DNA of 33,868 nt from Oculatellaceae cyanobacterium bins.114. Lineage in GTDB: Bacteria; Cyanobacteriota; Cyanobacteriia; Elainellales; Elainellaceae. The translations under genes were made by a program, and so were the position numbers. Shown here piece by piece: positions 20,655 to 33,868 of this stretch. Each line of letters starts with the position of its first letter. The stretch's first letter is position 1. The notes beneath the pieces were generated by a model. It made no database searches. It was not told the origin of the DNA and worked only from the letters and a program-made list of their open reading frames with translations. The stretch is taken from the NCBI GenBank assembly GCA_033764315.1, contig JANRJA010000133.1, forward strand, positions 1 to 33,868, in the 5' to 3' direction.

Positions 20655-22808
20655 CTATCCTTTGACGATCGCCCCAAAATCTGCCAAGACGCGAGCATGA
20701 TTTCGCAAAACACCTAACAAGTTCAGGCGATTGCGGCGGATGTTGGGGTTTTCATCCATCACCAAGACGCTGTCAGGTCCGTCAAAAAAGTGGCTAACCA
20801 CAGGGGCGATCGCAGTCAACCCATCCACCAGTTTTTGATAGTCACGAGTAGCTTGCGCCTCTTGAGTTTGGGGCACGAGTTGCACCAGCGCATCGTAAAA
20901 GGCTGGCTCTGAGGGACTTTGGAATAAGTCGGGTTGAATCAGAGGTTGGGGGTCGAGTTGGATTTTATCTAAGTCACCTTGGGCTGCCAATCGGGTAGAA
21001 CGGTTGACCGTTTCATAGATGGCATCCAGAGCGCGATTATGGCGGATGGATTGCAGAAAAAGGGCGCGATCGCGCACATCTAATAAGTCTTTGAGGGCAC
21101 GTTCGGTATAGTCGGGGTCATTTTCACCCAACACGGCATTCACCAAATCGTAATCAATCTGGCGATCGTCTTGCAACAGAGTGCGGATGCGTTGCAGGAA
21201 AAACTCATGCAACTGAGATTGCAGTCGAGGGGTGTGTTCGTTTTCACCAAAAGTGGCGGTGACATCGGCGATCGCCCGATCTAACTGTTGCTCTAAGTTG
21301 AGGGATAGATTCGCCATCCAAATAATATTGACGATCGCATTGGCGGCGCGACGCAGCGCAAACGGGTCAGAGGAACCCGAAGGAATCATGCCCAGGCTAA
21401 AGATGCCCACCAGCGTATCGAGGCGATCGGCAATGCCAACGACTTGTCCCAGCAAGGTTTGCGGCAGTTGGTCGCCCGCCCCACGGGGCAGGTAGTGTTC
21501 ATAAATGGCGGTAGCGATCGCCTCTCCTTCACCGCTAGCGAGGGCATATTTTTGCCCCATGACGCCTTGCAGTTCAGGGAACTCTCCCACCATCTGGGTT
21601 ACTAAATCGGCTTTACACAACAGAGCCGCTCGTTCAATAGAGGAGCGATCGCCTTGATTTAGCTTAAGTTGATCACCAATTTGCCCTGCAATTTGAACAA
21701 TGCGATCGACTTTGGCCCGGACTGAACCCAGTTTTTCCTGAAAGGTGACGGTTTCGAGTTTGGACAAGTAACCCTCTAACGGAATCTTGCGATCGGCATC
21801 AAAAAAGAACTTGCCATCTGAAAGCCGCGCCCGAATCACCCGTTCGTTGCCTGCCGCGATGATTTCAGACTGAGCAGGATCACCATTTGAGATTGTGATG
21901 AAGTAGGGTAATAACTCCGCTGAGCCTTCAGCTTTGAGCACCGGAAAATAGCGTTGGTGGTCTTCCATCTCAGAGATAATCACTTCCGATGGTAATTCCA
22001 AAAATTCGGGATCAAACTTGCCAACGACCGCCGTGGGATATTCCACCAGGTCAACCACTTCTGCAAGCAAATCGGGATCAATCCGTGCAACCCCCCCAAC
22101 CGATTGGGCTGCCGACAGAGTTTGCTGCTGAATATCAACTTTGCGTTGAGCAGGATCAACTTGCACTGAGGCAGATTCTAATTGGGTGAGATAATCGGCA
22201 GCATGGGCGATCGCGATCGGCTCAGGGTGCAGCACACGGTGTCCTTGGGAGAGGCGATCGCTGACACACACTTCAGAACCATTTTCCAATCGAATCGGCA
22301 GAACGACATCATCCAACAACGTCACAAGCCAGCGAATCGGACGGGGAAAACGCAGATCACCATCTCCCCAACGCATAAACCGCTTACCTTCTAGACCAAA
22401 GATCCAACCAGGGATCAGTTCAGTCAGAATCTCAGTCGTGGGACGGCCAGGAATCTTTTGATTAACAAAAACAAAATCGCCTTTGTCAGTGCTGCGAATT
22501 TCAAAATCATCAATGGAGACTTGGCGCGATCGGGCAAATCCTTCCGCTGCTTTGGTGGGTTTACCATCTTTGAAGGCAGCTTGAGCAGAAGGGCCTTTAA
22601 CGTCTTCTTCTCGGTCGGGCTGTTGAGTCGGTAACCCGTGAAGCAAAATAGCAAGACGACGAGGAGTGCCGTAGTAGTCAATGGTTTCGGGAGTGAGGAA
22701 CTGTTCTTTTAAGCTGGCAGGAATGCGCGATCGCCACTGTTCTAACGCATCGGCCACAAAACTGGCAGGCAATTCCTCGGTTCCCACTTCCAACAAAAAC
22801 GTCACCAT
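20655..22808 (-). CDS. glyS: Glycine-tRNA ligase beta subunit
   Basis: [54 protein letters not shown]-type C-terminus. Confidence 0.97.
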
Positions 22809-26467: not shown

Positions 26468-29098
26468 CTAACGTCCGCGAGTGACGCCCAACTGACGTTG
26501 CAGTTTGAGTTCGCGCCACACCTGCGATCCACTGATCTTGCCTTGTAAGAGCAGTTGATATTGCTGAATCGTATAAACAACCTGTTCTGGCGACTCGTTG
26601 ACAAACTCAATGCGAAATTGTCGTAGTCCCAGATTTTGTAAGTGTTGTGCGTACTCTGCTCCCGTTTGAGCGGTGCCATTAAAGACGGTGTTACGGCAAC
26701 CTGCATCTGCTTGCAACACATGTTCAACCCCGGTGCGATCGCGCAATGTCACCTGATGCGTCTCACACGGACGACCACAGTTGGTGAAATCGGTGCCCGT
26801 CGAGAGAAACGCACAAAAAACGCAGTGCTCCATATGAAACATGGGCATGTGTTGATGCACCGTCACCTCAAACCAATCGGGTGGGCAATGGGTTAACAGC
26901 GACTCTAACTGAGCGATGTTGAGATCGTAGGAAGCTGTCAATCGCTCTAACCCAAACTGTTTAAAGTGAACTGCCGTCAGTGGATTAGCCACATTCAGCG
27001 AAAAGTCACCAATGCAACGGCTGTCCTTAAAGAATTGCAGATGATCGTAGTTGCGAACGAGATAACCATCCGCCTCGCAGGAGCGCACTTGCTGCAAAAT
27101 CCAGTTCTCTCCGGGTTTGGTGATGCGTGGCGGAGCGACCCAGATAGAGTGTTCCTCACCCTGTTGCCGCACTAAACTAACCGCTTCTCGATAGGCACGT
27201 GGATCTTCAAATTCGCAGTACAGCGTTTGAATGCCAGATTGGAGGGCAGCGTGAAGTTGGGAGAGATTGCGGACGAGGGTGATCAGGTTAGCCGTTGGCA
27301 GAGACGCGATTAATCGCGTCTGTACGGGAGTGGGGAGTGGGGTTGAGGGGAGGTTGGGTGTTGGCAGAGATGCGATTAATCGTGTCTGTACGGGAGTGGG
27401 GAGTGGGGTTGAGGGAAGGAGGTTGGGCGTTGGCAGAGCCGCGATTAATCGCGTCTGTACGGAAGTAGGAAGGATTTCCGTCCAGGTAGCGGATGGTTGC
27501 AGTTGCCATCGTTTAGGGTGCGATCGCGCTTTTTCCAACTGTTCCACCAGATCTCGACGCAAACGGTTCAATTCCTTGACAGGTAACATGGCTGCATCAA
27601 CAAGGCCGTTGGTCAGCGTCTCTAGGCGAAAGGGAGTATTCCCCAAACGACCCAGTTGTTCCTGCAACCGCTCGGTGGTCAGGGGGTGAGTATGGGCTTC
27701 AACCAGAGGCATGGTCGAGTCTAGTTGAATGACATGCCCCAATTCATCTCGCGCGATCAGCGTCAGAGGATCGCCGATCGCCCCATGCACCTCAATCGAG
27801 ATCGGGCGTTGAAACTGGGGTATTTCTCCAGCAAAACTCTGGCGCAGTTGCCGATCGAGTTCGGGGTCACTGGTCTTCCAGAGGCGATCGCCCACTTGAA
27901 TGCGGTTCAAATCCAGATCGCCCCGTCCAAATTGCAACACAGCTTCAGTGCCCTGCACCTTAACCGAGTAAACCCGTCCTCCTTCTTCCTTTTCAGCAGG
28001 GTTTCCCCGATCAAACACCACCCCATCTCCAGCTTTGAGGGGAGCTTGCACCCGAACCGTAATCTGGTCTTTGTGAATGCGGATGACCTCACCGAGATAA
28101 ACGCCGCGTTTTTTGCCAAATCGCGCATGAACTAAGCTCTGGTTATCAATCCCTTGAAACCAGCCGGTGTGGAGTCCGCGTGAGAATGCCATTTCCAGGT
28201 CATACCGTTGTTGATCGCTCACCTGATGAGGCTGCGATCGCAGTCGGTCAAGGGCTTGACGATAAATGCGAGTGACATTTGCCACATATTCTGGTGCTTT
28301 CAGCCGACCTTCAATTTTCAGCGAGACGACTCCAGCTTGCACCAGGTCGGGCAACACGTCCAACCCGGCCAGATCTTGAGGGCTAAGCAGATAGTGGCGA
28401 TCGCCTAAATCGACAGGGTCGCCATCAACCATCAGGTCATAGGTCATGCGACACGCCTGAGCACACTCACCCCGATTTGCCGATCGCCCACCCAACGCTT
28501 CACTGGTCAGGCACTGCCCCGAATAGGCGACACACAATGCCCCATGCACAAACACCTCTAACGGCAGAGTAGTTCCTTGATCGATTAATTGGATTTGAAT
28601 TTTGTTGATTTCTTTAAGCGAACATTCTCGCGCCAACACCACTAACTGACAACCCAGCGATCGCACAAACTCCACACCCGCCACACTCGTGACAGTCATC
28701 TGAGTGGAAGCATGAATTGGAAAATCAGGTGATAGATGGCGAATCAAGCGACAGATGCCGACATCTTGCACAATGACAGCATCGACTCCCGCTGTGATGA
28801 TCTCACGCAAATACTGTTCGGCTTCGGGTAACTCGTCCGTAAAGACCAGAGTGTTGAGCGTGACGTATCCCTTTACCCCCCGTCGATGTAAAAACGCCAT
28901 TAGCTCTGGCAGATCCGCCGTAGTAAAGTTTTGTGCCCGCATTCGTGCATTAAAGCGATCTAGTCCGAAGTAAATCGCGTCTGCTCCGTTCTCTACCGCA
29001 GCTTTGGCGCATTCCCAGTTGCCTGCGGGAGCGAGTAACTCTGGCAGTGAGTGAATCGGAGCAGGTTGTGTAGATGCGTGGGATGGCTCAGAAATCAT
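26468..29098 (-). CDS. Peptidase U32-family Fe-S protein (RlhA-like RNA hydroxylase, DUF3656 type) with an in-frame repeat insertion
   Basis: ELLAPAG, GADAIYFG, HASTQ, HGALCVAYSGQC...NRGECAQAC, LKIEGR; C-terminal MEHC.FC...C...C. Confidence 0.9.
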   Translation of the reverse strand: MISEPSHASTQPAPIHSLPELLAPAGNWECAKAAVENGADAIYFGLDRFNARMRAQNFTTADLPELMAFLHRRGVKGYVTLNTLVFTDELPEAEQYLREIITAGVDAVIVQDVGICRLIRHLSPDFPIHASTQMTVTSVAGVEFVRSLGCQLVVLARECSLKEINKIQIQLIDQGTTLPLEVFVHGALCVAYSGQCLTSEALGGRSANRGECAQACRMTYDLMVDGDPVDLGDRHYLLSPQDLAGLDVLPDLVQAGVVSLKIEGRLKAPEYVANVTRIYRQALDRLRSQPHQVSDQQRYDLEMAFSRGLHTGWFQGIDNQSLVHARFGKKRGVYLGEVIRIHKDQITVRVQAPLKAGDGVVFDRGNPAEKEEGGRVYSVKVQGTEAVLQFGRGDLDLNRIQVGDRLWKTSDPELDRQLRQSFAGEIPQFQRPISIEVHGAIGDPLTLIARDELGHVIQLDSTMPLVEAHTHPLTTERLQEQLGRLGNTPFRLETLTNGLVDAAMLPVKELNRLRRDLVEQLEKARSHPKRWQLQPSATWTEILPTSVQTRLIAALPTPNLLPSTPLPTPVQTRLIASLPTPNLPSTPLPTPVQTRLIASLPTANLITLVRNLSQLHAALQSGIQTLYCEFEDPRAYREAVSLVRQQGEEHSIWVAPPRITKPGENWILQQVRSCEADGYLVRNYDHLQFFKDSRCIGDFSLNVANPLTAVHFKQFGLERLTASYDLNIAQLESLLTHCPPDWFEVTVHQHMPMFHMEHCVFCAFLSTGTDFTNCGRPCETHQVTLRDRTGVEHVLQADAGCRNTVFNGTAQTGAEYAQHLQNLGLRQFRIEFVNESPEQVVYTIQQYQLLLQGKISGSQVWRELKLQRQLGVTRGR
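27294..27462. repeat. Three tandem 66/69-bp units, each with a palindromic REP (AGACGCGATTAATCGCGTCT), separated by GGGAGTG-type short repeats, inside the U32 CDS
   Basis: Units start at 27294, 27360 and 27429; palindromes at 27302-27321, 27368-27387 and 27437-27456. Confidence 0.93.
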
Positions 29099-29325
29099 AG
29101 GACAGACGGCAGAAAGCGGAGATTAGTTCACCTCTACAACCCTAGCTTAAAGGGGATGGGGTGTGGGGGCTAGAGTGATCATGCGATCGCCAGCAAACCT
29201 CACGTGCTGAATTGACAGATGATGTGCGAATTTCAAGCGTGATTGAGGTTCACACGATCGAAACCATCACGAGAGAGTGCAAGCATCTTGCTCGCGATTT
29301 CATATTTCATTTGAGATATAGTTGC

Positions 29326-29604
29326 ATGTTTTACCTGATTTGCTATGACATCGTAGACGATCGACGGCGCACCAAAGTAGCACACCTGCTTGAAGGTTAT
29401 GGCTTGCGAGTGCAAAAGTCAGTGTTTGAAGCGGTGCTCACCCCTGACCAGCGGCAAATGCTGCATAAAAAACTCAATCGCTATCTCAACGCAGAAGAAG
29501 ATCAGGTGCGGTTTTACCCCATGTCGCCTCGCTATCGACAAAAGGTCGAGATTTTAGGATGGCAACCCGAACGAGAAGTAGACGACGTAGCGTTTATTGT
29601 TTAG
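29326..29604 (+). CDS. cas2: CRISPR-associated endoribonuclease Cas2
   Basis: MFYLICYDIVDDRRRTKVAHLLEGYGLRVQKSVFE...DQVRFY; 92 aa from ATG 29326. Confidence 0.95.
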   Translation: MFYLICYDIVDDRRRTKVAHLLEGYGLRVQKSVFEAVLTPDQRQMLHKKLNRYLNAEEDQVRFYPMSPRYRQKVEILGWQPEREVDDVAFIV

Positions 29605-29659
29605 GAGAGAGGGGGTAAATAAATTAGGACACAAGGGCCATTGCTTTATAAACGATAGG

Positions 29660-29882
29660 AGCCATTCTCGGTAGGATGGGCACTGCCCATCATTCGTTAA
29701 AACTAGCACGGTGAACAATGCTCACCCTACGGTTTGTGGGTGCTATGTAGCTGCATTTGCCCCCCAACCCCCCAAAAATGGGGGACTAGTAGCCATTCTC
29801 GGTAGGATGGGCACTGCCCATCATTCGTTAAAACTAGCATGGTGAGCAATGCTCACCCTACGGTTTGTGGGTGCTATGTAGC
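29660..29882. repeat. Direct duplication of a 92-bp REP-doublet unit (29660-29751 and 29791-29882)
   Basis: Each unit has GTAGGATGGGCACTGCCCA ... GGTGARCAATGCTCACCCTAC; the copies differ at 2 positions and are separated by a C/G-rich CCCCCA..TGGGGG hairpin. Confidence 0.9.
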
Positions 29883-30293
29883 AAAAGCTATGTTGCTGAA
29901 GACGAAGTGTAGGGGTTCCACCCCCTTCAGATCGAATATTGCCGGGTTAACGGGAGGAATTATGAGTCGGCAAAGTCGCAAGTACAAGAAACAATTTGAC
30001 TGTGGGCATAAAGGCTATGGGCAATATTGTCATCGCTGTGAAGGGGTCAAATCACAGCAAATCACTAGTCCTTCAAGACAAGAATCAACCTACCCTTTCT
30101 ACTCAAAACTCAAAACTGAGGCTTCGACAGGCTCAGCCAACTTAAAACTCAAAACTCAACGTAAAGACGCGATTAATCGCCTCTCTCCTCGTGGGAATCT
30201 GCTCAAAACTCAAAACTCAAACCTCAAACCTTCCAAAGATCAATGGCAGCAAAGCTTTTTGCAAGATTGCATCGATCTCTCATACTTGCCTAA

Positions 30294-31207
30294 GAGGGTG
30301 TTTGAGAAGTTATGAGAGGTCAACTTTTACGCCAAACGCCTCACCATAATCCGGATCATGGCTAGGTAGATGAAAGTTTCTGATGTTTCTGGCAACAATT
30401 CATAGTCTCGAACCAAACGTCTGCATTCCATCCACCATCCAAACGTCCGTTCCACCACCCATCGTTTTTTAAGCACCGAAAAGCCTTTAGTTTGGTGTGG
30501 TCTCAGGACAACTTGGACAATCCAACGGCAAACATCCATCACCCACATCATGAAGGGTGCGCCATCAAAGCCACCATCGGCCCAAATAGTCGTCAAACGA
30601 GATACTCAATGTCCCATCCGCTTGACCCGTTTGAGAACTCGCTTTCCCCCCGTTCGTTCTCCGACACTGGCAGCGGTGACCAACACCCGCAAGACAAGCC
30701 CCAGCGTATCGACCGTCAAAAACCGTTTGCCTCCTTTAATTCGTTTGCCCGCATCGAACCCCACCGCCTGAGCGACTCCGGCTGCACTCTTGACGCTCTG
30801 ACTATCGATGATGGCTTCTGATGGGCTCGGTTGACGCGCTGCCTCCATGCGAATCCACTCTCGCAGGTAATCGTGAATCCTGATCCAGGTTCCGTCTTTG
30901 CGCCAGTTGCGGAAATAGGTGTATACCGTCTGCCACGGGGGGAAATCCCCTGGCAATGATCGCCATCGCACCCCTTCCACTAGGACGTAAAGGATGGCGT
31001 TGAGGACGAGCCGCATATCGACTTCACGAGGACGACCACCCGGTTTTGCAGGGGGAATCAGGTCGCTCAAAAATTCATATTGGGCAAGGGTCAGGTTACT
31101 AGGGTACGCTTTATTCACGTAGCTCACTCAGTGCTGTGTATTTTGTTATTCGCAGCTTAATACTGAGTGAGCTTTCTTACGACGTGCCTGGCTTTTCAAA
31201 CACCCTC
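30294..31207 (-). mobile_element. IS5-family (IS1031-like) insertion sequence, 914 bp, TAA target duplication
   Basis: TIRs GAGGGTGTTTGAGAAG / CTTTTCAAACACCCTC; TAA at 30291-30293 and 31208-31210. Confidence 0.95.
30327..31127 (-). pseudogene. IS5-family DDE transposase with internal in-frame TGA
   Basis: AYPSNLT, GGRPR, WRSLPGDFPPWQTVY, IIDSQS, VDTLG, ADGGF, RWVVERTFGW. The two track ORFs share one frame and are separated by TGA at 30606-30608. Confidence 0.9.
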
Positions 31208-31433
31208 TAAGACAATTGTTTTAAAAGCTCGTCAGATTTTGGCTGATTTACAAAATGGAGTGAGTCTCTATCAGCTTCGAGGCAGGCGCATGAGCTTTGA
31301 CCGCAATCTCATTCGCATTCCCGTGACCTATCGCTATCGGTTGCTCTGCTATCAACAAATGACTCAAATTACGCCACTCAAAGTTATGTCTCACGAAACA
31401 TACAATTCCATTGCTCGTAATACGTTTCGTTAA

Positions 31434-31689
31434 GTGATAGCACAGCCGCTTGACTTTTTTGCTAACAAGCGAATATTGTGACGGCATGGCTTCGCTCTTG
31501 TGGGGGTCAGCCGCACCTCGAAAACCGCATAACTTCGTTGACCCTGGCAGATTGCTTGCCATGATTGGCTTTCAGGCTCTTTAGAAGAGTCTTTATTGAC
31601 AGCCATTTTCAATTATTTTGGCTTTGATCTGACCCCCACAAAATAAGGTACTTCAAACCCTTTTCTAGATTGAGTTCTAGATGGAGGGG
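31434..31689 (+). promoter_or_regulatory. CRISPR leader with candidate sigma70 promoter
   Basis: Non-coding region abutting repeat 1; TTGACT (31450-31455), 18-bp spacer, TATTGT (31474-31479). Confidence 0.6.
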
Positions 31690-32509
31690 GTTCAATTCCT
31701 ATTACCCCGCAAGGGGACGGAAACAATGGGGCGAAAAATTTACAAAATAGAAACACCTGTTCAATTCCTATTACCCCGCAAGGGGACGGAAACGATGAAA
31801 TCCATGAGTTCGTCCAGATGTCTTTCTCCATGTTCAATTCCTATTACCCCGCAAGGGGACGGAAACCAGTACCAGTACCAGTACCAGTTCCAGTTCCACC
31901 AGTTCAATCCCTATTACCCCGCAAGGGGACGGAAACACGAGGTTCTGCTGTAATTGCTCCCCCGTTTTTGCTGCAAGTTCAATTCCTATTACCCCGCAAG
32001 GGGACGGAAACCTGCAGGAAGTTGGATTGTTGTGCCAGCAAGCGAGCGTTCAATTCCTATTACCCCGCAAGGGGACGGAAACACGAAATTAGCCAGCAAT
32101 CAACTGACGGACGACTTCAAGTTCAATTCCTATTACCCCGCAAGGGGACGGAAACTTTATCCCCCATCCGATGATGGCTAGGATAAGGGTTCAATTCCTA
32201 TTACCCCGCAAGGGGACGGAAACGTTACGGGCAGCTTGAAGTGCTGCCTCGTCTTTTGTTCAATTCCTATTACCCCGCAAGGGGACGGAAACGAGAGTCC
32301 TGCTGGGTTGCACCAGCAAGATCAGTAATCGTTCAATTCCTATTACCCCGCAAGGGGACGGAAACGATTTGGCGGACCAGCCCTTGGATCCGGTAAAGGG
32401 TGTTCAATTCCTATTACCCCGCAAGGGGACGGAAACATTGAAAGCTTGAACTTCGCGCACCCAAGTGTCAATTGGTTCAATTCCTATTACCCCGCAAGGG
32501 GACGGAAAC
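31690..32509 (+). CRISPR. CRISPR array: 12 x 35-bp repeats GTTCAATTCCTATTACCCCGCAAGGGGACGGAAAC, 11 spacers of 33-40 bp; type III-like
   Basis: Repeats at 31690, 31759, 31832, 31902 (one T>C), 31977, 32048, 32121, 32189, 32258, 32331, 32402, 32475. CCCC-GCAA-GGGG hairpin plus 8-nt tag ACGGAAAC resembles the Synechocystis 6803 CRISPR2 (III-D) repeat as recalled. Confidence 0.98.
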
Positions 32510-32526
32510 GTGGTAGCAGATGAATC

Positions 32527-32990
32527 AAGAGGAAACGGATGGTTCTCTGATGGGAGGTTGAGGTTGGTAGGGGGCGATCGGTGAGGAACGGATGAGGAGT
32601 CTGTCAACGCCGAGAGTATGACTTAAGAGGAAACGGATGGTTCTCTGATGGGAAGTTGAGGTTGGTAGGGGGCGATCGGTGAGTAACGGATGAGGAGTCT
32701 GTCAACGCCGAGAGTGTGAATTAGGAGGAAACGGATGGTTCTCTGATGAGAGGTTGAGGTTGGTAGGGGGCGATCGCTCACGATAAAGATTTCTTGGATT
32801 GACCTACACTCATCTCCTAACCACTTGCCATCCACTACCCCACAAGACAGCCATCCGTTGCCAACTGATCCCTCGTTGGTAGAGTCAGTTGGCAACGGAT
32901 GAGCTATCTGTGAGGAGTGAGGTGTATGACTTAAGAGGAAACGGATGGTTCTCTGATGAGAGGTTGAGGTTGGTAGGGGGCGATCGCTCA
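32527..32990. repeat. Non-CRISPR tandem repeat: 52-bp core x4 (98-bp period for the first three) plus a 17-bp perfect inverted repeat
   Basis: GAGGAAACGGATGGTTCTCTGATGRGARGTTGAGGTTGGTAGGGGGCGATCG at 32529, 32627, 32725, 32935; CATCCGTTGCCAACTGA (32852-32868) / TCAGTTGGCAACGGATG (32885-32901). Confidence 0.93.
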
Positions 32991-33087
32991 GCTCTTGAGA
33001 AACTGTATAACAGTCAGTTGAGCGGACTATATGAGGGGTGAAGATAGCTGTGATTTGAGTAACAGATTGATGCTCTAATCGTTCTGA

Positions 33088-33549
33088 TTATTGGTATGGT
33101 TCTTTGGTTTTTTGATAAGGTCTCCAAAGATATTGCTCAATATCTCCTTGCCAATTTTGCACAGCTTTAGGGGGCAAGATGCGTTTATATTCCAAGCGCG
33201 ATCGCCCAAAATTGAGTAGTAACCCCACAGGGGCTTGAGTTGCGGCAAGATAGGTAATCACTTGGGCAAGTTCTTTGTCGCCCATGCGCCGAGAAACCGC
33301 TTTATCTTCAACCACGATACACTCGTTGACCCAGTGATCGAGGTAGAGCCGTCCCAGCCAAGTTTGCTCATTAAAAATTTCGAGGTGATACTCCTCTTCA
33401 ACGATCAACCCGTCCTGAAGCATGGCTGCGGTGAGTGCTCTTTGATAATGCTTTTCTTTTAATCCGCGTGGAGTGTCGCGATGAACTTGCATGGCAGCAC
33501 CTATGATGCGATAGGTGATGTCTTGATAGGGAATAACTATGTTGCTCAT
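33088..33549 (-). CDS. GxxExxY family protein (PD-(D/E)xK nuclease-like)
   Basis: TYRIIGAAMQVH..PRGLKEKHYQRAL (GxxExxY), YLDHWVNECIVVEDKAV, AQVITYL, GLLLNFG. Confidence 0.92.
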   Translation of the reverse strand: MSNIVIPYQDITYRIIGAAMQVHRDTPRGLKEKHYQRALTAAMLQDGLIVEEEYHLEIFNEQTWLGRLYLDHWVNECIVVEDKAVSRRMGDKELAQVITYLAATQAPVGLLLNFGRSRLEYKRILPPKAVQNWQGDIEQYLWRPYQKTKEPYQ

Positions 33550-33730
33550 TGTGAGGGTAGAAATGCGCCACCATTAGAGTGCCCATAAAGAACGATCGGT
33601 ATTTAGGGGGACAGTGGGTAACGGATGAGTTTTTTGTGGGGTGGCAATGGACAAGAAATGATACCAATTGAAACAGTCTTTACGACAGATCATCGCCCCG
33701 AACTGATCCCCCTCAGTCTCCCTTTTCAAG

Positions 33731-33868
33731 CAGGGTGGTTTCATTTATGGGGATAAAAATCAAAATGGATTGAGGTGCATTGGCTTCAACCATGACTCAA
33801 CCTCAAACCCTCAATCTCATCGAACACCTCAAACAAATTCCAGACTACCGCAAAGGCAAAGGCAAACG
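33731..33868 (+). mobile_element. Left end of an ISAs1-family IS (transposase starts at 33792, truncated by the window)
   Basis: CAGGGTGGTTTCATT terminus; ORF MTQPQTLNLIEHLKQIPDYRKGKGKR matches the ISAs1 (H-repeat) N-terminal L..IPD.R...GKR pattern. Confidence 0.72.

Follow-up and report, generated by a model that had tools for sequence, protein, structure and literature searches.

A GxxExxY nuclease gene and its flanking word arrays at the trailer end of a cyanobacterial CRISPR array

On contig JANRJA010000133.1 of Oculatellaceae cyanobacterium bins.114, an array of clustered regularly interspaced short palindromic repeats (CRISPR) is followed within a few nucleotides by a second, regular block of repeats, and these surround a gene for a small GxxExxY protein of the PDDEXK_3 nuclease family. 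Do these repeats belong to the array, to the gene or to neither? We addressed this question in a window of 33,868 nucleotides, which is the entire contig (C122) of a cyanobacterial draft genome with 251 contigs. The answer that we favour, and that comparison of sequences makes probable, is that the 98-bp repeats, the palindrome and the copies of the motif AACGGATG are private word arrays of a GxxExxY cassette, whose protein would recognise its own flanking words. The function of PDDEXK_3 is listed as 'unknown' in one paper (PMC3424549), and the searchable portion of the literature yielded no description of flanking repeats of GxxExxY genes.

Repeats around the gene

The motif AACGGATG occurs eight times on the + strand of the window (at 32534, 32587, 32632, 32685, 32730, 32894, 32940 and 33620) and once inverted (32852). 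All nine copies lie within 32534-33627, around the GxxExxY gene (33088..33549, - strand), and none elsewhere in the window, so that the bracketing of the gene remarked on in a preliminary description of this locus holds. The genome as a whole has 267 copies on its two strands. A scatter of the repeat core throughout the genome, which would have spoken against a link with the gene, is not what we found: the window's word cluster is the only one (at least three words) in 6.6 Mb, and the 98-bp unit described below has no further copy in its own genome and none in 60 relatives. Exact 22-mers from the block had no match in the genome-contig or metagenome-contig collections.

The block opens with a first, degenerate word (GGTAGCAGATG; 32512..32522, + strand) that starts 2 nt past the last CRISPR repeat, a junction common to relatives. 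There follows a higher-order tandem array (32520..32776, + strand) with two degenerate words per unit (GAGGAAACGGATGG and GTGAGGAACGGATGAG), made of two units of 98 bp that are 96% identical (32520-32617 and 32618-32715) and a partial one (32716-32776); Tandem Repeats Finder gives a period of 98, 2.6 copies and 94% matches. A unique linker (32777..32834, + strand) leads into a long palindrome (32835..32920) that holds two consensus words, inverted, as TGGCAACGGATG arms. The perfect 17-bp inverted repeat first seen in the third linker (32852-32901) was found again as the core of this palindrome (32852-32868 / 32885-32901) and extends to about 85 nt. Next come a fourth copy of the core of the 98-bp unit (32926..32986, + strand, 95% identity over 61 nt), the gene and, on its far side, the promoter-proximal consensus word (33607..33642, GGGTAACGGATG on the + strand). 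This last word is the right arm of a 36-nt inverted repeat (32837-32872 / 33607-33642, 28 of 36 positions matched) that encloses the gene; none of 300 shuffles of the flanks reached 28 matches, the maximum being 23.

If A and B denote two diverged forms of a single unit that carries the word, the block reads (A B)(A B) A - linker - B' B - A - gene - B. Each motif copy is part of a longer shared unit, and the block is more regular internally than first described: the core starts recognised earlier (32529, 32627, 32725 and 32935) fall within the 98-bp units and the fourth copy, and the near-identity of the linkers at this period is borne out by the 96% identity of the units.

The block resembles a CRISPR array in the regularity of its repeats and directly abuts a true one, but it differs in its period of 98 bp and in having two word-bearing sub-repeats per unit. 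Because entire units repeat at 96%, linkers included, it has no unique spacers, and Rfam gave no CRISPR-DR match in 32510-33000; a CRISPR identity was rejected on these grounds. A coding repeat was likewise rejected, as 98 bp is not divisible by three and the overlapping open reading frames (ORFs) are short and cross CRISPR repeats. A promoter and terminator scan was uninformative, with 6 promoter-like sites against 2.6 expected.

Word arrays beside homologues

We fetched 39 loci encoding relatives of the protein and used the 34 of cyanobacterial type for word counts. The 7-mer ACGGATG/CATCCGT occurs 200 times in the 32,288 nt of flanks within 500 bp of the gene and 56 times in the remaining 148,602 nt, or 6.2 against 0.38 per kb, and 41 of the 56 outside copies come from two long arrays that extend beyond 500 bp. 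Words are present in the flanks of 32 of the 34 loci, with at least three copies in 25, so that homologues do not lack such flanks and the earlier proposal of gene plus repeats as a self-contained module is strengthened. A de novo check pointed the same way, with AACGGAT-type 7-mers as the commonest flank 7-mer in most loci, and the pooled consensus of 333 sites is kGGyAACGGATG. The start of the 52-bp core, GAGGAAAC, had been taken for an echo of the end of the CRISPR repeat; this likeness dissolves, since the window has seven further copies of GGAAAC outside both arrays and the A-rich prefix merely belongs to the word consensus.

With the gene drawn on the + strand, the usual map begins with a run of direct words, passes to inverted ones before the gene, and has after it either more inverted words or a second direct-then-inverted set. 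The basic units are tandems of 9, 12 or 17-18 bp (GTAACGGAT, TGGTAACGGATG, CATCCGTTGCCAACCCCC), and higher-order tandems occur at several homologue loci (187 bp x 9.9 in L043, 55 bp x 18.7 in L050, 117 bp x 2.9 in L063 and 96 bp x 3.6 in L070). In relatives the upstream word nearest the gene lies 54-120 nt before the start codon, a gap that leaves room for a promoter, so the upstream arrays are probably outside the gene's own mRNA. Most homologue loci with words are far from any CRISPR array. These comparisons show that word arrays travel with the GxxExxY gene family and expand locally into higher-order tandems. Of the co-occurrences proposed for the repeats, the one with GxxExxY genes is thus upheld (32 of 34 loci), and the one with CRISPR arrays fails outside the window's own subclade.

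Distant homologues have the same layout with other words, namely GCGGAT, CAGGAT, GCAGAT and ACAGAT. In a maximum-likelihood tree of 39 protein rows, from which the broken copies L066, L062 and L112 were excluded, the ACGGAT clade comprises 23 rows and has GCGGAT as its sister. A CAGGAT clade unites two Dehalococcoidia with three cyanobacteria (support 90/78), and a GCAGAT clade unites a cyanobacterium with one Elusimicrobia and one Planctomycetes genome (99/95). Within the window's own taxonomic family, genomes carry ACGGAT, CAGGAT or GCAGAT cassettes according to protein clade. The flank word tracks the protein clade and not the host. Covariation of this kind would be expected of a protein that recognises its word; it is support and not proof.

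On the reading that we favour, the cassette consists of a small RecB/Cas4-like PD-(D/E)xK nuclease gene with intact catalytic residues and of arrays of an 11-nt word (kGGyAACGGATG) on both sides of it, direct and inverted. The protein would bind, and perhaps cut, its own words or the cruciforms and hairpins that these words may form. The inverted arrays would promote local rearrangement by tandem amplification and, at this locus, probably by inversion of the segment with the gene that lies between the 36-nt inverted repeats. The package could then persist as a selfish or semi-domesticated element, as repetitive extragenic palindromic (REP) sequences do with their RAYT gene, word recognition underlying both its persistence and the rearrangements nearby.

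Several observations weigh against this account. The covariation follows the tree, so that a gene and flanks with a common descent would produce it even if nothing recognised the words. Only one copy of the gene exists in its own genome, which holds one gene-less relic (contig C135, ~21136) and gives no sign of recent proliferation, and the word maps and tandem-repeat tables of the Microcoleus loci look alike, which points to vertical inheritance and not to movement. Compared with terminal-inverted-repeat elements, such as miniature inverted-repeat transposable elements (MITEs) or insertion sequences (ISs), the window's cassette has the bracketing 36-nt inverted repeat but exists in one copy only, and neither a target-site duplication nor an empty site was identified for it; on the right, next to the contig end, a MITE and an IS have destroyed its flank. 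Finally, the words of the 98-bp units are degenerate at position -3, and these units may be decaying copies.

If the protein does read its flanks, the consequences would reach beyond this locus. TIGR04256/PF13366 is a widespread family, and private words that covary with it across phyla give it a concrete and testable role, that of a nuclease recognising its own flanks. The package of gene plus repeats recurs in many bacteria, and it accounts for a kind of CRISPR-like tandem array that will keep turning up for array-finding programs and human readers alike.

Known systems offer partial parallels. In iteron and centromere-like arrays, such as plasmid parC/ParR and replication iterons, short direct repeats are bound by the product of a neighbouring gene. 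The cassette is similar in that short direct repeats lie just upstream of the promoter of the gene for the proposed binder, but this binder has a nuclease fold and is not a ribbon-helix-helix or Rep protein, the words stand in mirror image on both sides of the gene, and the whole is chromosomal with a single-copy gene. The REPIN-RAYT system likewise pairs a single-copy gene with its own short flanking palindromic repeats, which are specific to the gene lineage and inherited mostly vertically and patchily, as far as the consulted portions of these sources describe it (PMC3116915, PMC3337134, bioRxiv 10.1101/2022.05.22.493013). It differs in its enzyme, RAYT being a Y1 HUH (IS200/IS605-like) transposase and ours a PD-(D/E)xK RecB/Cas4-like protein, in using one REP hairpin where the cassette has arrays of 9-12-nt words, and in its dispersed gene-less copies, in place of which we find one word cluster and one diverged hairpin relic. 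Intervening sequences (IVSs) of 23S rRNA that contain an ORF, as in Coxiella burnetii, also place a small ORF within inverted repeats able to form a long stem and, according to the available part of PMC4990558, are regarded as selfish, a view that we extend to the cassette; genes of the IVS protein family (PF05635) moreover adjoin cas2 in three relatives of the window's locus (L033, L049 and L062). The cassette, however, sits not in a 23S rRNA helix but between a CRISPR array and a MITE and IS, where Rfam found no rRNA, its ORF is of another family, and its words are direct as well as inverted.

The nuclease, its CRISPR contact and competing readings

The gene encodes an intact protein of 153 aa that matches PF13366 (E 4.9e-27; 95.1 bits, cut-off 22) and TIGR04256 (E 3.9e-28; 98.1 bits, cut-off 35). 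Its GxxExxY motif is G29-L-K-E32-K-H-Y35, and the residues of the nuclease motifs D71, E81-x-K83 and Q96-x-x-x-Y100 (D71, E81, K83, Q96 and Y100) are invariant among 23 aligned sequences. A structure model (pLDDT 88.3) has as its best fold match the Cas4 protein SSO0001 (4ic1; Foldseek E 1.6e-5; VIA Z 8.8, root-mean-square deviation 4.7 over 114 residues), followed by the BpuSI nuclease domain (Z 8.0) and by a second Cas4 and Hjc (Z 7.0 each); a VIA Z near 8 is the level at which the tool warns of a common fold only. As modelled, the protein is a RecB/Cas4-like PD-(D/E)xK core and nothing beyond. Cas4 is defined by RecB-type nuclease motifs including QxxxY and by a four-cysteine iron-sulfur cluster module. 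The resemblance to Cas4 (SSO0001, Pcal_0546) thus covers the fold, the D...ExK and QxxxY motifs and, in one subclade, a position beside cas1-cas2 and arrays. It stops at the small size (~150 aa) and at the single cysteine among the 153 residues, which leaves no room for the iron-sulfur module; most GxxExxY relatives, moreover, are unlinked to CRISPR and have private flanking words, which Cas4 genes are not known to carry. A Pfam scan (E <= 0.001) gave PDDEXK_3 and a sub-threshold SHOCT_2 match but no Cas4 profile, PADLOC and PHROGs gave 0 families each, a plasmid collection gave 6 weak records of which none covered 80% of the protein, and a sequence search of solved structures gave IntI4 alone (E 0.1). 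Upstream of the gene, 22-39 nt from the start codon, lies a conserved box (TTATGGGCACTCTAATGG; 33571..33588, - strand) that recurs as TGGG(C/A)AC-N-CTA at a similar distance in L033, L042, L049, L066 and L196 and is restricted to the window's subclade; it may be a promoter or operator.

The CRISPR array itself (31690..32509, + strand) has 12 repeats of 35 nt (GTTCAATTCC..GGGGACGGAAAC) and 11 unique spacers, its last repeat is intact, and Rfam (E <= 1) gave it weak CRISPR-DR matches. Its leader (31499..31689, + strand) was placed on the left by homology to the sequence (100-200 nt) that immediately precedes the first repeat in arrays of the same family (76% over 117 nt in L152, with further matches in L080, L078, L115 and L049). 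The array is therefore read from left to right, which puts the reported block at its old, trailer end. In L042, L049, L066 and L112, too, the gene stands behind the trailer end of an array from this repeat family, and in all five array-adjacent loci, the window included, a word starts 2-5 nt past the last repeat: GGTAGCGGATG stands 2 nt past it also in L042 and L066, and L049 and L112 have a word at a distance of 2-5 nt. The closest relative, L033 (81%), has cas1-cas2 at 2 kb, L196 has cas6 directly after the cassette, and L062 has cas1-cas2 after it. The window, L033, L196, L042 and L049 form a subclade (support 93/83), and all its members, with five intact genes and three broken ones (L066, L062 and L112), lie beside arrays or cas1, cas2 or cas6.

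The order of array, gene and cas2-DUF7682-ParE varies among the window, L042, L049 and L062, and the gene points toward the array in the window alone. We infer that an inversion between the 36-nt inverted repeats would turn the L042 order into that of the window. The suggestion that the module had landed in the array proves too simple, for the junction with the last CRISPR repeat is common to five genomes and looks inherited. We conclude that the CRISPR contact is one old juxtaposition, inherited and rearranged in one subclade of Leptolyngbya-type cyanobacteria, and it is a general property of neither the cassette nor the CRISPR repeat family. For CRISPR biology, the subclade is of interest as one in which the cassette stayed at the trailer end of an array through several rearrangements.

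The block is accessory. A close orthologue of the gene is present in 3 of 60 relatives, where one is a pseudogene, and the 100% complete genome of the same genus yielded none; synteny with the latter ends at window position 29166, just before cas2. The window's own genome has a second array of the same repeat family on contig C135 (20391-20921), with a cas1 fragment upstream. This array is followed by a truncated repeat, an insertion, and a hairpin with its lead-in (~21059-21190; L072 2060-2215) that align to window 32778-32912, that is, to the linker and the palindrome. No GxxExxY gene was found at the C135 hairpin site.

The relic bears on an alternative set at the RNA level, according to which the inverted words are RNA stems, comparable to the inverted-repeat stems that RNase III cuts in IVSs of 23S rRNA, and terminate, insulate or process transcripts entering the gene, here CRISPR read-through, and no protein reads the words. 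In the C135 hairpin the mutation of the word affects the same base pair in either arm (CATCTGTTGCTAAC / GTTAGCAACAG), the stem being kept, and the window's palindrome folds very strongly, with energies of -53 (+ strand) and -62 kcal/mol (- strand; z -8.2 and -11.4, 0 of 200 shuffles as good). The terminator scan found no terminator-like site between array and gene, and ORF-bearing elements with inverted repeats that are processed by RNase III are known, as the part of PMC4990558 at hand describes. Yet none of the four direct 98-nt units, on either strand, folds better than its shuffles (z -1.4 to +0.4) or matches an Rfam family, so that we reject the structured noncoding RNA of ~98 nt once envisaged for this block. 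Stem-forming alone would not require the conservation of a specific word that, across phyla, goes with the protein clade. In 26 flanks the sense strand folds better in 9 and the antisense strand in 17 (p = 0.17, confounded by G+U content), with 7 against 7 upstream, and the upstream arrays probably lie before the promoter. An effect through RNA alone thus seems unlikely to us. We find it harder still to see the arrays as a neutral minisatellite, made by replication slippage and unequal recombination and hitch-hiking beside a functionally unrelated gene. The free variation of periods and copy numbers among loci (9, 12, 17-18, 55, 98 and 187 bp), the degenerate words of the 98-bp units and the wealth of other short tandem repeats in cyanobacterial genomes (heptamer arrays in L035, L037 and others) would fit such an origin, but slippage alone leaves the mirror-image arrays unexplained, the same word is kept in both orientations and on both sides of the gene across cyanobacterial families, and other phyla retain different words next to different protein clades. 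That the tandem copies are a short-read mis-assembly is very improbable: the draft is in 251 contigs and the block lies at most 1.4 kb from a contig end broken by a repeated IS, but 4 of 98 positions differ between the copies, which form two subtypes and hence are not a collapse of identical ones, and the same architecture recurs in many independent assemblies, complete chromosomes included.

The CRISPR contact invites a further reading, in which the nuclease of the subclade is a Cas4-like end processor for Cas1-Cas2, or the words serve as a mark or terminator at the array's trailer end. Its appeal lies in the company kept by all five subclade rows and the three broken copies, in the first word at 2-5 nt from the last repeat in all five array-adjacent loci, in the homologous hairpin downstream of the second array of the family, and in Cas4 as the best structural match; a GxxExxY gene called cas4 by CRISPRone is also reported beside a CRISPR-associated reverse transcriptase, in the section consulted of bioRxiv 10.1101/2021.01.26.428298. 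Outside the subclade, however, Cas1, Cas2, Cas6 or an array was found within 3 kb at none of the other 26 ACGGAT-clade loci, and among 80 sampled arrays with the same repeat end, of which about 53 had 500 nt of trailer, the gene was found within 1.5 kb of one (L112), among the matches listed. The protein lacks the cysteines for an iron-sulfur cluster and matches Cas4 neither in Pfam nor in PADLOC, and three of the eight subclade copies are pseudogenes or fragments. The neighbourhoods are also rich in other passengers, such as ParE-like, HepT/MNT and 23S_rRNA_IVP genes, ISs and MITEs, together with what we take, from its sequence, to be a Uma2-like ORF. We therefore consider a dedicated CRISPR function of the cassette as doubtful as the minisatellite. 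A broader version combines word recognition with this contact: GxxExxY cassettes would form a class of self-recognising elements of their own, in which a minimal RecB/Cas4-like nuclease would read an 11-nt word kept in mirror-image arrays around its gene, and in one Leptolyngbya-type clade the element would long have been retained as a fixed trailer-end or adaptation component of CRISPR, for instance by defining or terminating the old end of the array or by supplying an end-processing nuclease that is absent from these Cas1-Cas2 modules. Such a novel element strikes us as slightly less far-fetched than the CRISPR function by itself, and still unlikely. Private word arrays of the GxxExxY cassette thus remain the reading that we prefer.

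Neighbouring features of the contig

The genome of 6.6 Mb has 10,682 copies of HIP1 (GCGATCGC). Housekeeping genes occupy 1-29098 of the window and are followed by cas2 (29212-29604), by a DUF7682 ORF between cas2 and a frameshifted IS5-type element (30286-31215), and by a ParE-like ORF (31167-31433). The first ~100 nt of the cas2 ORF (window 29205-29305) recur, at 78-79%, in over 15 scattered places of the same-genus genome G001 and have no match elsewhere in G000, and the Pfam domain begins at residue 39, after the matched stretch. This 5' stretch is probably a dispersed repeat, with the real cas2 start further downstream.

Between cas2 and the DUF7682 ORF lie two 96-nt direct repeats (29656-29751 / 29787-29882, 97% identity) with a single weak extra copy in the genome (C47). 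At their place L033, L049 and L062 have a gene of the 23S_rRNA_IVP family (PF05635, 23S rRNA intervening-sequence protein) directly after cas2 (L033 3361-3813, L049 4136-4531, L062 4301-4699). In L196 (G004:C79) the Cas6 encoded directly downstream of the cassette (286-1410) has a C-terminal helix-turn-helix like that of sigma-70 region 4 (PF08281, 1.6e-6). The IS5/IS4-type element ends in inverted repeats of 24 nt (88%), and its transposase is broken up into two ORFs (30606-31127 and 30327-30596); the insertion lies directly upstream of the ParE-like ORF and overlaps the start of that ORF.

At the right end of the window, a supposed orphan CRISPR repeat (33641-33674) was rejected, with 25.7 bits against the CRISPR-DR60 gathering score of 45; from 33661 onward it is the end of a MITE. 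The MITE has 14 genome copies and is cut at ~33728 by an IS, whose first ORF starts at 33792, the two together occupying 33661-33868. The same IS sequence terminates contigs C68, C135, C156 and C160, and the contig stops here because this repeated element sits at its end. At the other side of the locus, the U32 peptidase ORF (26468-29098, - strand) contains a 66-bp tandem repeat of 2.7 copies (27285-27466), which is a member of a dispersed family (75 BLAST hits, on 34 contigs) and also matches many places in the same-genus genome.

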